A stretch of DNA of 64,000 nucleotides from an uncultured Chlamydiae bacterium (GCA_963828125.1 CAWHDP010000002.1:1632001-1696000); one strand, 5' to 3'. Shown: positions 20,286 through 28,995, counted from the first letter of the stretch. Made by a program: numbers and translations. Notes: generated by a model from the letters alone, not told the origin.

Positions 20286-21611
20286 ATGGCAAAGAATAAA
20301 ACCATCAAAGCGGAGGTCCAAACATTTGAGATTGAGACCCCAGAACCAGAATCTGAGATCCTTTTAGAAGAGTTATTCTGGCGTACCGAAACAAGAAAAA
20401 TTAAGGACTTGAAGGAGCATGAGAAAAATCCTCGAAAGATCACTAAGGATCAAATGGAAAAACTCAAGCAGTCGCTCAAGAGCTTTAACTATGTGGAGAC
20501 CATCGTTGTTAACCTAGACAACACTATATTGGCAGGTCACATGAGGATCAGAGCTCTAAAGGCGTTGGGGCGTGGAAAGGAAGAGATTGAGGTTCGAGTT
20601 CCAAACCGACAGCTAACGGCTCGAGAAGCTGAAGAATACCTTATCCGCAGCAATAAAAATTCGGGAGAATGGGATTGGGAGCGCTTGGCTAATGAATGGG
20701 AGGTATCCGATCTGTTCAATTGGGGATTTACTGAAGATGAGCTACAGGTCAAAGACCCCGAGAAGATCGAGGCTGTGGATGATGGCTATGAGGAAGAATT
20801 GCCAGCCGAACCGAAAACCAAGCCTGGGGATATTTACGCCCTCGGCAGGCATCGGCTCATTTGTGGGTCTGCCACAATCCATGGAGACATTGAGAAGGTT
20901 CTCGATTCGGAGTTGATTGATCTTGTCATTACAGACCCCCCTTACAATGTAGCTTATAAGGGTGGAACAAAGGACAAGCTGACCATCAAAAATGATGATC
21001 TGTCAGCGGAGGAGTTCGAGGCTCTTTTGAGAGATTTCTACGTCAATGCTTTCGTGTTTATGAAAGAGGGCTCTGGGATCTATGTCTTTCACGCCGATTC
21101 AGAGGGAGAGAAATTCCGCCGATTTTTCCGCGAGGCGAATCTGAAGATGACTCAATGCCTTATTTGGTTGAAGAACTCTTTTGTGCTCGGACGTCAAGAT
21201 TATCAATGGCAGCACGAGCCGGTCCTATTTGGAGGCAAAGAATACAGCGATCACGATCCTGTTCTCTATGGATGGAAAGAGGGGGAAAAGCATCGTTGGT
21301 ATAACAATCGCAAACAGACCACACTTCTTAAATTTGATCGACCTCAGCGAAATGCCGAGCACCCCACAATGAAACCTATTCCCTTGATTGGGTATCTTAT
21401 CAATAACAGCTCTAAAAAAGACGACCTTGTCTTTGACTTCTTTCTAGGCTCAGGAACCACGCTGATTGCTGCAGAACAACTTGGGCGCTGCTGCTTTGGC
21501 TGCGAGCTCGATCCAAGATATTGCGATGTGATCGTCGAGCGCTACAAAAAGTACAAGATGCAAAAAAACGAACTCTGCGAAATCAAGCTGAATGGAGAAG
21601 CGTATGCCTAG
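20286..21611 (+). CDS. Phage-type ParB-N / DNA N6-N4 methyltransferase fusion
   Basis: KNPRKI...ILAGHMR ParB-like N-terminus; TDPPYN, HPTMKP, DFFLGSGTTL. Confidence 0.9.
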   Translation: MAKNKTIKAEVQTFEIETPEPESEILLEELFWRTETRKIKDLKEHEKNPRKITKDQMEKLKQSLKSFNYVETIVVNLDNTILAGHMRIRALKALGRGKEEIEVRVPNRQLTAREAEEYLIRSNKNSGEWDWERLANEWEVSDLFNWGFTEDELQVKDPEKIEAVDDGYEEELPAEPKTKPGDIYALGRHRLICGSATIHGDIEKVLDSELIDLVITDPPYNVAYKGGTKDKLTIKNDDLSAEEFEALLRDFYVNAFVFMKEGSGIYVFHADSEGEKFRRFFREANLKMTQCLIWLKNSFVLGRQDYQWQHEPVLFGGKEYSDHDPVLYGWKEGEKHRWYNNRKQTTLLKFDRPQRNAEHPTMKPIPLIGYLINNSSKKDDLVFDFFLGSGTTLIAAEQLGRCCFGCELDPRYCDVIVERYKKYKMQKNELCEIKLNGEAYA

Positions 21612-22080
21612 GAAACCCACGGGAAGACCGAACGGGCGCCCTAAAAAGACGGTCAAACCTCCTGTAGATCCAAAAGCGCCACCTGCTGAATGGAAAGGAA
21701 CGATCCCAGAAAAGGAAATCAACCTCGATCAGGTGCTTTATTGGACCGAATTGCAAGCAACCGCGGAAGAAATTGCGGGCGCTTTTCGGGTCAGTGTTGA
21801 CACTTTGGATCGAAGGTTGAGGGAGGCTTTCGGTATGGGTTTTGCGGAGTTAAGAAAAAGGTGCAATGGGCTTCATAAACTCTCCCTCCGACGATACCAA
21901 TTCCAGCAAGCCGAGCGCAATGCAACGATGGCAATTTGGCTTGGAAAGATCTGGCTCGGACAACGAGAGACGATCATCACCGAAACGATTGTGAAGGAGG
22001 AGGATTCCGTTCGCATTTACATCCCCGATAATGGCAGGGGCGATTGTATCGAAGAGAAGGTGGAGGATCCAAATGCTTGA
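21604..22080 (+). CDS. Probable terminase small subunit
   Basis: Overlaps the methylase and TerL; HTH segment and ATMAIWLGKIWLGQ motif. Confidence 0.7.
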   Translation: MPRKPTGRPNGRPKKTVKPPVDPKAPPAEWKGTIPEKEINLDQVLYWTELQATAEEIAGAFRVSVDTLDRRLREAFGMGFAELRKRCNGLHKLSLRRYQFQQAERNATMAIWLGKIWLGQRETIITETIVKEEDSVRIYIPDNGRGDCIEEKVEDPNA

Positions 22081-23422
22081 AATCACGCCACAAGAAGGAC
22101 CGCAGCATCAGTTTTTGAATTCATCTGCAGATATCGTGATCTATGGAGGAGCTGCCGGAGGCGGCAAAACGTACGCCCTCTTGATAGAGTGCTTACGCCA
22201 TCGCAACGTTCCTGGCTTCTCAGCCGTTGTCTTTCGCCGCAATAGCACACAGGTTCGCAATCCAGGTGGTCTGTGGGATACAAGCTGCGAGCTTTTTCCA
22301 TATGTCAACGGCACACCAAAAGAATCGACCCTTGAATGGGATTTTCGAGGGAAAGGTAAGGTTAAGTTTGCCCATCTGGAGCATGACAAGACGCGTTTTG
22401 ATTGGCAAGGGGCTCAAATTTCCTTGATTGGATTCGATGAATTGACTCATTTTTCTTGGGCGCAGTTCGTCTATATGCTCTCGAGAAATCGATCAACTTG
22501 TGGAGTCAAGCCGTATATCCGCGCGACCACGAACCCCGATACTGACTCGTGGGTTCGTCAGTTCATCGCCTGGTGGATCGATGATTACTCTGGATACCCC
22601 ATTCCTGCGAGAAGCGGCAAGACGCGCTGGTTCTTCATTCAAAATGATGAGACCATTTGGGGCGCAAGTCGGGAAGAATTGATAGAAAAAGACCCAAATT
22701 GCCTGCCGAAGAGCGTTTCTTTCGTCGCATCTACCGTGCATGATAACAAAATTCTGCTAGAGAAAGATCCAGGCTACCTCGCCAACCTTAAAGCGCTGCC
22801 ACGCTTTGAGAGAGAACAATTGCTCATGGGAAATTGGAATGTGCGGCCCACTGCGGGAATGTTCTTCCAAAGGGGCTTCTTTGAAGTCGTCAAGGCGATT
22901 CCAAAAGGAGGGACAAAGGTGGTTCGCTACTGGGATCGCGCCGCCACAAAGAAGACAGAGAGCAATGACCCTGATTATACCGTAGGGATTCGACTTGAAA
23001 AGGACAAAAACAACCTCTTGTACGTCACCGATATGGTTAGAATCCAACAGAGCCCTCTAGGCGTCCAAACGACGATTAAAAATACGGCCAGCCAGGATGG
23101 CATTGGGATTCGGATTGGAATTGAGCAAGACCCAGGTCAAGCAGGAGTAAGCGAAGCTGATTATCTCGTCAGAATGCTCCAAGGCTATAATGTAAAAACG
23201 TTCAAAGCTACACAGGATAAGGTCACAAGAGCTCTTCCAGTGTCATCGCAAGCAGAGGCTGGAAATATCAAAATCTTGCAAGCCCCATGGAATGAAGATT
23301 TTTTGAGGGAACTTGAGAACTTTCCTGAAGGAGGACATGACGATATCGTTGATGCGTTAAGCGGGGCTTTTTTGATGCTTACCGACTCTGCATACGATTT
23401 AGCATCCTTAACCGTGCTTTAA
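22073..23422 (+). CDS. Phage terminase large subunit
   Basis: YGGAAGGGKT Walker A, FDELTHF Walker B, ATTNP, WDRAAT and HDDIVDA nuclease motifs; GGAGGA RBS. Confidence 0.92.
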   Translation: MLEITPQEGPQHQFLNSSADIVIYGGAAGGGKTYALLIECLRHRNVPGFSAVVFRRNSTQVRNPGGLWDTSCELFPYVNGTPKESTLEWDFRGKGKVKFAHLEHDKTRFDWQGAQISLIGFDELTHFSWAQFVYMLSRNRSTCGVKPYIRATTNPDTDSWVRQFIAWWIDDYSGYPIPARSGKTRWFFIQNDETIWGASREELIEKDPNCLPKSVSFVASTVHDNKILLEKDPGYLANLKALPRFEREQLLMGNWNVRPTAGMFFQRGFFEVVKAIPKGGTKVVRYWDRAATKKTESNDPDYTVGIRLEKDKNNLLYVTDMVRIQQSPLGVQTTIKNTASQDGIGIRIGIEQDPGQAGVSEADYLVRMLQGYNVKTFKATQDKVTRALPVSSQAEAGNIKILQAPWNEDFLRELENFPEGGHDDIVDALSGAFLMLTDSAYDLASLTVL

Positions 23423-23471
23423 CTTAAAACTCTAATATTAAATAAGATAAAGTAAATAAACTATTTGAAAA

Positions 23472-27836: not shown

Positions 27837-27847
27837 TTGAGGCAAAT

Positions 27848-28021
27848 GTGATCCAAAAGGAACCCAAAGACTCAAAGTCTCAAGAAAAAAACTCGGAAGC
27901 CAAAAAAATTGATATTGCGATCATCACGACTCTGCCCGGATCACCAATTCAAGGGATAATCTGCAGAGAAGAGCATAAAAAGTTGTTCGAAGGTCTTTGG
28001 GGAAGGAAGCAAAGATCATGA
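27848..28021 (+). CDS. Small hypothetical protein coupled to the recombinase
   Basis: GTG start after GAGG; ATGA overlap with the recombinase start. Confidence 0.35.
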   Translation: MIQKEPKDSKSQEKNSEAKKIDIAIITTLPGSPIQGIICREEHKKLFEGLWGRKQRS

Positions 28022-28995
28022 CTCTAATGCCAGCAGTTTTAGATCTTCCAGTCCCCTCTCATTTGGACACCTATGAGCAGGCCGCATCATTCAAGACCAA
28101 TTTGGTTTGGAAGCAATTGGATGAAACCTCTGTAGAGGAGGCCCTCTCCTATTGGCTACCGACTTTGAGTCCAAAGACTCAGCTGAACTATAGATCTGGC
28201 ATCAAAAAGCTGATTGAACTCGGATGGCTTAATCCCCTTATGAGTTTGCAGCAATTTGCTTTGGTCAACCATGAAGGCGTAATCGACCGCATTAAACTCT
28301 TCCAGGATTGGGCTGAGACTACTAGACAGGCACGGGCAGCCTGCTACATCTCGTTTACTGGATTTTTAAGCCGCCGTCTTCAGGGTGTTATAAAAAAGGC
28401 CGTTCCAAGCAGGGAAGGCAATGCAAAGACGTTCTTCAGTGTATATGAGAAGGTGAAAACGAATGCGATGACTCAGGCGCAGTGGATTTTATTCTTCAGG
28501 GAATTGGAGAAAATCAACCCTCGCGACTGCCTGATTGGAAAGATCATCTTGCAAGGAGGAAAGAGGGTTAACGAGGTGCTGTCTTTGCAAACCAGTCAAA
28601 TCGATTGGGATCGCTGCGAGATTACCTTTGCTCAGTCGAAAATGAGAAGGCTTAAGAAAGAGACTGTGATTACATATCCAGAGAGCATCATGAAACGGCT
28701 TAGAGAATACATTGGGGAAAGAACCGGTCACGTATTTGTAACCAGATCAGGAAAGCCCGTTATGATGAATCAGCTAGCCATGACTTTTGCAAAGGCTGGC
28801 AGGGCTGCCGGTATTCCATTCAAAGTTTCTCCTCATGTGCTGAGGGCTTCTGCTGTGACCTACCTTAAGCAGCAAGGTTTCCAAGACAGCGATATCATGA
28901 GAGTCACTGGCCATTCCACATCGGAAATGGTTTTTGCCTATGACAAGTCCTCGCGTGCAGATAATGCGAGTAAAAAAGTAAACTTAATATCCTAG
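28018..28995 (+). CDS. Tyrosine recombinase of the chlamydial plasmid pGP7/pGP8 type
   Basis: ARAACYISFTGFL, LQGGKRVNEVLSL, PHVLRAS, TGH...AY catalytic set. Confidence 0.85.
   Translation: MTLMPAVLDLPVPSHLDTYEQAASFKTNLVWKQLDETSVEEALSYWLPTLSPKTQLNYRSGIKKLIELGWLNPLMSLQQFALVNHEGVIDRIKLFQDWAETTRQARAACYISFTGFLSRRLQGVIKKAVPSREGNAKTFFSVYEKVKTNAMTQAQWILFFRELEKINPRDCLIGKIILQGGKRVNEVLSLQTSQIDWDRCEITFAQSKMRRLKKETVITYPESIMKRLREYIGERTGHVFVTRSGKPVMMNQLAMTFAKAGRAAGIPFKVSPHVLRASAVTYLKQQGFQDSDIMRVTGHSTSEMVFAYDKSSRADNASKKVNLIS

Follow-up and report, generated by a model that had tools for sequence, protein, structure and literature searches.

We analysed a stretch of 64,000 nucleotides from an uncultured Chlamydiae bacterium (GCA_963828125.1, CAWHDP010000002.1:1632001-1696000, here G000:C2:1632001-1696000), called the window below, and within it a tailed-phage packaging block followed by a tyrosine recombinase gene resembling pgp8 of the chlamydial plasmid. 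We are confident that this locus derives from a temperate phage-plasmid of myovirus type of environmental Chlamydiota and is a non-autonomous fragment, captured recently; in itself it is neither a phage-plasmid nor a satellite. The source genome (G000; 2.37 Mb, 95% complete) carries the window on a contig of 1.92 Mb, and coordinates are window positions unless a contig with a G number is named. An initial annotation had proposed, for positions 20286-28995, either an integrated remnant of a double-stranded DNA (dsDNA) phage-plasmid or a terminase-bearing satellite. The first of these proposals was retained, whereas the second was abandoned because the locus is colinear with an internal segment of complete elements. 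The block so delimited is real, but homology to relatives reaches about 34598 through cargo genes, and the remnant was redefined as follows:

20153-34598, plus strand: whole phage-plasmid remnant, with the packaging block, the predicted resolvase cassette and part of the cargo region, cut by insertion sequences (IS) at both ends

Its left part is the packaging block:

20286-21611, plus strand: ParB-like domain fused to an N6/N4 DNA methyltransferase (PF01555, phrog_620, DPPY and FxGSGTT motifs)
21604-22080, plus strand: TerS, terminase small subunit (helix-turn-helix (HTH) region; assignment weak but consistent)
22073-23422, plus strand: TerL, terminase large subunit (PF03237 and PF17289; phrog_979 at E=1e-163)
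23525-24121, plus strand: AbiEi antitoxin (profile matches)
24118-24978, plus strand: AbiEii nucleotidyltransferase toxin of a bacterial type IV toxin-antitoxin system (profile matches)

As the initial annotation had described them, the methylase, TerS, TerL, AbiEi/AbiEii and recombinase genes were all present, open, motif-bearing and in this order, with 8-bp start/stop overlaps joining methylase to TerS and TerS to TerL. The Walker A/B and nuclease acidic motifs of TerL were intact. TerS carries the weakest label of the block: it matched phrog_309 at E=0.0064, 12 of its 19 aligned positional homologues matched the same family, a fold search recovered a TerS in BFVD (E=3e-4), and the ESM Atlas contained viral look-alikes. 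Sequence and fold searches against the PDB returned HTH matches only and no TerS, and the single-sequence structure model was poor (predicted local distance difference test, pLDDT, 54). A promoter and terminator scan of the locus remained at chance level.

No portal, capsid or tail gene was found in the window, in line with the initial annotation, nor elsewhere in the 95%-complete genome by tblastn with all structural proteins of the Criblamydia plasmid described below, by a capsid search or with PF04860. A search of G000 for replication and partition genes belonging to the locus returned only distant chromosomal ParA, DnaB and DnaG matches. Because G000 has no portal or capsid, the fragment cannot package DNA, and its terminase is without a known substrate in this genome.

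The same block occurs on much larger elements. Plasmid 1 of Criblamydia sequanensis CRIB-18 (NZ_LK031773; closed, circular, 89.5 kb) has both the block order of the window (methylase, TerS, TerL, AbiE, small gene, site, recombinase) and the 28-bp site described below, with 80-81% nucleotide identity and 87-95% protein identity over six large genes (88% for the methylase fusion, 92% for TerS, 89% for TerL). The window copy differs in being chromosomal, in measuring only about 12 kb without its IS21 element, and in being devoid of replication, partition, head and tail genes. The closest complete relative was the circular 96-kb contig G130:C12, with 90% nucleotide identity, an empty IS21 site and two cargo genes in common; TerL of the window was 98% identical to those of G130 and G363. 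The search of chlamydial plasmids and metagenomic contigs that the initial annotation had suggested thus recovered terL together with a Pgp8-like gene on the Criblamydia plasmid, on G130:C12 and on others.

The Criblamydia plasmid carries head and neck genes (portal, minor head, protease, major capsid, neck, terminator), tail genes (sheath, tube, chaperone, tape measure, hub, spike, wedge, fibre) and the non-structural genes for a repressor, RecT/exonuclease, a primase-helicase and ParA. Judged by gene content, the parent elements carry a complete virion morphogenesis set (head, neck, contractile tail, baseplate and fibres), together with TerS/TerL, ParA and a primase-helicase. We found the structural module on eight contigs of 70-98 kb, the size range of the complete elements, in which a block with repressor and RecT/exonuclease genes is usually present as well; two further cases are G404:C73 and a copy integrated in G401. 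Of the eight contigs, 5 end in direct repeats of 55-77 bp, such as circular assemblies show. TerL had matches in 30 of 401 Chlamydiota genomes (full-length and at least 86% identical in 13, G000 included), and the major capsid protein in 11 of 401, ten of them at 94-100% identity and from five families. None of the fifteen structural genes contained a stop codon in any of the nine elements compared, and their median dN/dS (non-synonymous to synonymous substitution rates) of 0.02-0.09 indicates purifying selection; pairs with dS outside 0.05-1.5 were dropped, and some genes rest on 2-3 pairs.

The term "chlamydial plasmid backbone" used in the initial annotation was justified only in part. The Pgp8 cassette is the sole close homologue of the Chlamydiaceae plasmid on the complete elements; their ParA and helicase domain are about 30% identical to Pgp5 and Pgp1, and Pgp2, Pgp4 and Pgp6 had no match in the five complete elements checked. 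Conjugation genes were not seen on the two annotated elements (Criblamydia plasmid and G130:C12), and PLSDB types the former as non-mobilizable.

Several related structures were observed besides these. In G401:C2 (65704-159663; L290-L294), a whole 94-kb element lies within a 350-kb contig, opened inside parA with only 2-3 shared bases; its 28-bp site is intact, and several genes (terL, methylase and portal) have frameshifts, which reflect either decay or errors in sequencing. G111:C1 (about 801-848 kb; L095-L097) holds another chromosomal remnant, about 47 kb long, with an incomplete portal gene on one side, a cut early gene on the other, and terL and cargo in between. G288:C2 (22394-39195; L092), from another chlamydial family, has a different and more distant structural module of myovirus type (capsid 52%). 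In run X4 from lake water, an 8-kb contig (record 25) about 95% identical to the module, with a depth of 85 and without IS21, belongs to an abundant close relative.

The TerL phylogeny, another check proposed at the outset, grouped 24 rows from chlamydial elements, the window included, in one clade (support 100/99) against 14 sister rows from IMG/VR, some rows being near-duplicates. Within it, the window TerL grouped with those of G130 and G363 (100/100), and under midpoint rooting the chlamydial clade was nested among the IMG/VR sisters. The gene order of the clade is DUF1064, methylase, TerS, TerL, optional AbiE, small gene, site, recombinase, 2-22 kb of cargo, and portal. In 21 of the 21 examined loci with both genes, TerL lay 0.4-4.6 kb upstream of the recombinase; the linkage is thus not a chance juxtaposition, a possibility that the initial annotation had raised against itself. 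In 16 IMG/VR sister contigs, with TerL identities of 64-77%, terL abuts the portal gene. This comparison indicates that the terL-portal junction is ancestral and that it is split in the chlamydial clade by a plasmid-derived cassette (small gene, site, recombinase), after which comes a cargo hot spot.

The cassette in the window, together with the IS that interrupts it, consists of:

24975-27617, minus strand: small conserved gene, with IS21 inserted near its start; its ribbon-helix-helix (RHH)-like nature is conjectural
25196-27578, plus strand: IS21-family element of 2383 bp (istA 25261-26562, istB 26556-27353) with a 5-bp target duplication
27809-27836, no strand assigned: 28-bp site, a perfect inverted repeat with 11-bp arms around a 6-bp spacer, putative recombination site for the recombinase next to it
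28018-28995, plus strand: Pgp8-like tyrosine recombinase, catalytic residues intact (R-K-H-R-H-Y)

The gene list of the initial annotation was correct in its members and order, but the IS21 element inside the small gene had been overlooked; relatives show the empty insertion site. The IS21 profile scan was made on a near-identical copy at 16192-18575. The small gene, called RHH in that list, had no Pfam or PHROG match and only weak similarity to a gene beside parA on the complete elements. A small open reading frame (ORF) at 27773-28021 is probably not a gene, as it overlaps the 28-bp site and is largely deleted in several members. The recombinase was confirmed as being of the Pgp7/Pgp8 type: it was 48% identical to Pgp8 and 35% to Pgp7 of C. 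muridarum, and 89% to the Criblamydia plasmid protein.

An alignment of 19 recombinase upstream regions showed a single strongly conserved feature, the 28-bp site, with a variable 6-bp spacer. It lies at most 3 kb upstream of 25 of the 31 recombinase copies, that of a phage-free Waddlia plasmid included, and 17 of its 18 exact matches in the 401 genomes were beside a recombinase match; in G000 it is single-copy. Matches with one mismatch (15 sites, 3 beside a recombinase) came close to the level of the reversed-pattern control (10 genomes), and we gave them no weight as evidence. Lone perfect 11-6-11 repeats are not unusual (23 in G000), and the evidence for the site is its conservation. The initial annotation had called it dif-like. 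The site is real and has the 11-6-11 geometry of dif, but we rejected its identification as a XerCD dif: its arms are perfectly symmetric and it matches a canonical dif at only 13 of 28 positions. It also lies about 140 kb from the GC-skew minimum and far from the skew maximum, unlike a terminus dif. A weak candidate for the host dif, on the minus strand of G000:C2 near 386516, is close to the GC-skew maximum (378 kb) and matches a dif consensus at 17 of 28 positions.

With its symmetric arms, its variable spacer and its conservation just upstream of the recombinase, the 28-bp site fits the pattern of a resolution site for a single recombinase, a geometry like that of loxP and difSL. It was intact, with its native flanks, in the three chromosomal captures examined (window, G111 and G401). 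Because the site is intact in the captures and the G401 copy was opened inside parA, the Pgp8-like recombinase is probably a multimer resolvase and not an integrase, and the site is likely its multimer-resolution site as predicted from sequence. The recombinases of G088:C6, G142:C3, G272:C17 and L113 grouped with those of Simkania plasmids (support 99, FastTree), which suggests exchange of the recombinase at the same locus while the site was kept. In G055:C1 (L104, L106-L108), we observed several chromosomal Pgp8-like copies, some with stops and one with the site and small gene, with no terminase.

The locus lies about 14 kb from rpsL-rpsG-fusA. The host, whose EF-G was 84-90% identical to those of uncultured Chlamydiae genomes and 75% to that of Chlamydia, is best matched by read runs from soil metagenomes; runs with a small word share (X7-X20) did not enter the analysis. 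The elements that bound the remnant are:

19198-20152, minus strand: truncated transposase element, presumably ISAs1-like, whose end sets the left boundary
34599-35984, minus strand: multi-copy IS, which we take to be ISL3-like, forming the right boundary without target duplication

By blastn, homology to relatives begins at 20148-20158 and stops at 34601, and the IS ends are at 20152 and 34599. Relatives have a DUF1064 resolvase gene ahead of the methylase, which was not found anywhere in G000 for the DUF1064 gene. In the run that is possibly the source, depth was 12-16 for the module, 11 for the cargo, 54 for IS21 and 88 for the right-hand IS, which have 5 and 6 full copies in G000, respectively. 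Since these two IS depths fit the numbers of full copies, and the module has about one fifth of the depth of IS21, we consider the module single-copy, as suits a chromosomal fragment; this was the coverage comparison that the initial annotation had called for. Private changes in the window genes were mostly synonymous, as in relatives (TerL, 4 non-synonymous and 43 synonymous), and capture of the fragment was probably recent.

Taken together, these data can be read as the following scenario. A myovirus would have taken up the resolvase cassette of a plasmid, placed between its terL and portal genes, and turned into a plasmid prophage. The parent element would live as a low-copy plasmid prophage, its recombinase resolving element multimers at the 28-bp site in Cre/lox fashion and AbiE guarding it against loss, while virions would move it between host families. 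In G000, a copy may have entered the tRNA-Phe island and then been trimmed by IS on both sides, the terminase being left in the remnant because it is located between two cargo regions; AbiE addiction would retain the fragment and probably slow its deletion. More generally, we consider it reasonably probable that environmental Chlamydiota harbour active, plasmid-living tailed dsDNA phages that captured a Pgp8 resolvase and its site between terminase and portal and that carry tens of kb of cargo from one host family to another, presumably where these co-infect a protist.

A number of observations weigh against this interpretation. Even with up to 4 mismatches allowed, the 28-bp site was not found on the C. 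muridarum plasmid, and the Simkania stretch examined lacks it too. No holin or endolysin was recognised on the Criblamydia plasmid or G130:C12, the one "endolysin" PHROG match on the former falling on a gene in baseplate position. Among the phages sampled that have this capsid family, 56 of 60 have genomes of 44-62 kb and one of 79 kb, and the largest IMG/VR sister contigs, of uncertain completeness, measure 41-47 kb; the elements, at 70-98 kb, are larger than both, which implies either an enlarged head or sub-genomic packaging. The terminase block is missing from G244:C3 and the repressor/RecT early block from G101:C4, and part of the family may be defective. The members are mostly from metagenome bins, one TerL-recombinase locus (L124) having been binned in a Bdellovibrionota genome, and the tailed-phage half of the parent elements is predicted from their genes. 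Finally, the low private amino-acid change fits a recent capture, yet would also fit ongoing use.

Some of these points would also be expected if the parent elements were plasmids with a domesticated virion operon, making either gene transfer agent-like particles that package pieces of about 45-55 kb or tail-like weapons, with no whole-genome transmission; the window would then hold a remnant of such an element. The conserved core amounts to only 31-40 kb of coding sequence in genomes that vary from 70 to 98 kb, the capsid family normally resides on 44-62 kb genomes, the head genes have the same lengths as in the sister phages, and lysis genes were not recognised on the annotated elements. Near-identical elements nevertheless occur in five host families, with no conjugation genes seen on the two annotated ones; the 79-kb phage does have this capsid family, and the repressor and RecT/exonuclease block is kept in most members. 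On balance we regard domestication of the operon as unlikely.

Domestication of the fragment by the host, which might employ the methylase, the terminase or AbiE, for instance against phages, would explain why every gene except one has stayed intact and why private non-synonymous changes are few, and it suits the presence of AbiE and of an ATPase that is a PADLOC candidate. It is nonetheless very improbable: TerL was not found in seven of seven genomes of the same genus, and young, near-identical copies of IS lie around the stretch and within it.

We give still less credence to the locus being an autonomous terminase-bearing satellite that hijacks a helper phage. Intact TerS and TerL, a recombinase, a defence pair, a position in a tRNA island and the lack of structural genes do recall the phage satellites used for comparison (PICI, cf-PICI, PLE, P4), and similar capsid-less terL-recombinase pieces exist in G111 and G363. 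However, primase and replication genes are missing from the locus, and its own ends coincide with IS ends and bear no att repeats; its recombinase is internal, with the site intact, and not the terminal integrase of an att-bounded element; and the G111 copy is broken elsewhere, within its portal gene and within an early gene. That a free plasmid was wrongly linked to the chromosome via IS repeats, in assembly or in binning, is scarcely credible either: both boundaries are ends of multi-copy IS and no short-read contig spans the whole stretch, but the locus is inside the 1.92-Mb contig near ribosomal protein genes, the rest of the element was not found in either G000 contig, and, at single-copy depth, the locus is covered by short-read contigs, mostly near-identical, from three runs of two studies.

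Retaining the captured phage-plasmid fragment as our interpretation, we describe the remaining genes of the remnant, which occupy the cargo position:

29060-29890, plus strand: NUDIX protein, with no homologue found in the fetched relatives
29918-30970, plus strand: cargo ORF, 71% identical to a gene downstream of the recombinase in G360:C27
31014-31583, minus strand: HIT-domain cargo gene, 71-75% identical to genes on G244:C3 and G401:C2
31730-33232, minus strand: ATPase cargo gene, PADLOC candidate PDC-S27, 74-98% identical to recombinase-portal cargo in relatives
33580-34608, minus strand: cargo ORF, the last homologous gene before the right boundary, 92% identical to G130:C12

Metal-efflux ATPases and a multicopper oxidase are part of the cargo of G130:C12 itself (L052-L055), as are many GNAT and methyltransferase genes, and it also encodes a beta-lactamase-fold protein and an ABC-F-like ATPase.

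The remnant sits in a stack of islands of low GC content (39-45% against about 50%), rich in IS and ending at a tRNA-Phe gene:

12807-46401, minus strand: island stack, with tRNA-Phe at 46329-46401
12807-12851 and 39894-39938: copies of the 3' half of tRNA-Phe within the stack
45009-46358: separate integrase within the stack

We rejected the tRNA-Phe repeats at 12807 and 39894 as phage att sites: they are part of a longer repeat unmatched in the fetched relatives, and the absence of any tRNA on the Criblamydia plasmid and G130:C12 also counts against that role. At 12736-12870 and 39548-39988, repeated fragments run into the copies of the tRNA-Phe 3' half, with related pieces at other tRNAs of G000; these fragments presumably correspond to the end of a large serine recombinase gene. 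The window also contains a second AbiE-like pair at 9956-11659 (DUF6088 and a split AbiEii), the C-terminal part of an Mrr-type restriction endonuclease adjoining an IS (14341-15210), and a multi-copy IS66-family element at 36590-39490 with a cysteine-rich passenger ORF of 158 amino acids, 100% identical at five places in G000.

Among known systems, the parent elements resemble phage-plasmids of the P1 type in being circular, predicted low-copy prophages with ParA and a contractile tail, and also in their toxin-antitoxin pair, their tyrosine recombinase beside a symmetric site and their variable cargo. They differ from it by a capsid of the DUF2184 family, with best cultured matches of 36-42%, by a recombinase of the Pgp7/8 family, by the 11-6-11 geometry of the site and by an obligate intracellular host. 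Phage-plasmids are defined as a class in PMC7969092, whose main text does not mention chlamydiae. With the 7.5-kb plasmid of Chlamydiaceae (Pgp1-8), the common feature is the Pgp8 homologue (48%, all catalytic residues); the complete elements differ in having no Pgp2/4/6 homologues and only about 30% identity to Pgp1/Pgp5. In the available part of PMC13711795, Pgp8 is reported to act in plasmid maintenance and to be homologous to recombinases. Uncultivated IMG/VR myoviruses (e.g., L158, L167, L168 and L181) share TerL (64-77%), capsid (58-78%) and the order and lengths of the head-tail genes with the elements, but their terL directly abuts the portal gene, and no Pgp8 cassette or site occurs in the stretches available. 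The island PnaK_GI2 of Protochlamydia naegleriophila KNic, likened by description only, has terL in a tRNA-adjacent chlamydial setting (PMC5010888, in part), and the chlamydial phages named in the same portion are Chlamydiamicrovirus.

Phage genes on these plasmids are already in print. The Criblamydia plasmid proteins were described as "7% phagic" (PMC4208316). According to accessible portions of the respective papers, pRm2 of Rubidus massiliensis is circular, has about 2-3 copies and 20 phage proteins and is more than 70% identical to the Criblamydia plasmid (PMC4791399), and the plasmid of P. massiliensis is circular, of 92 kb, with two copies (PMC5583166). The portion of PMC7846284 at hand recognises a "phage group" of genes, labelled "Prophage", with terminase and baseplate J, considers Pgp7/8 to be confined to chlamydiae and of viral origin, and infers whole-plasmid transfer between species; the supplements obtained contain no match for "capsid" or "portal". 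We found no published account of how complete or how widespread the elements are, nor of the site. Our literature search recovered no tailed virus of environmental chlamydiae, no target site for a Pgp8-family recombinase, no description of the 28-bp site and none of the family as complete tailed phage-plasmids; subscription journals and the element list of PMC7969092, which may include the Criblamydia plasmid, were outside its coverage. The part of bioRxiv 2023.03.17.533158 available to us has nothing on these elements.

The locus is thus a stranded fragment, and its value is that of a pointer to a family of tailed phage-plasmids in obligate intracellular Chlamydiota. This family would provide a vehicle for the interspecies transfer of whole plasmids inferred in the consulted portion of PMC7846284, no conjugation genes having been seen on the two annotated elements. 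The complete elements are a plausible target for chlamydial CRISPR systems, and the 28-bp site is a concrete candidate DNA site for a recombinase of the Pgp8 family. As cultured amoeba-associated carriers exist, the phage and site proposals are both testable.

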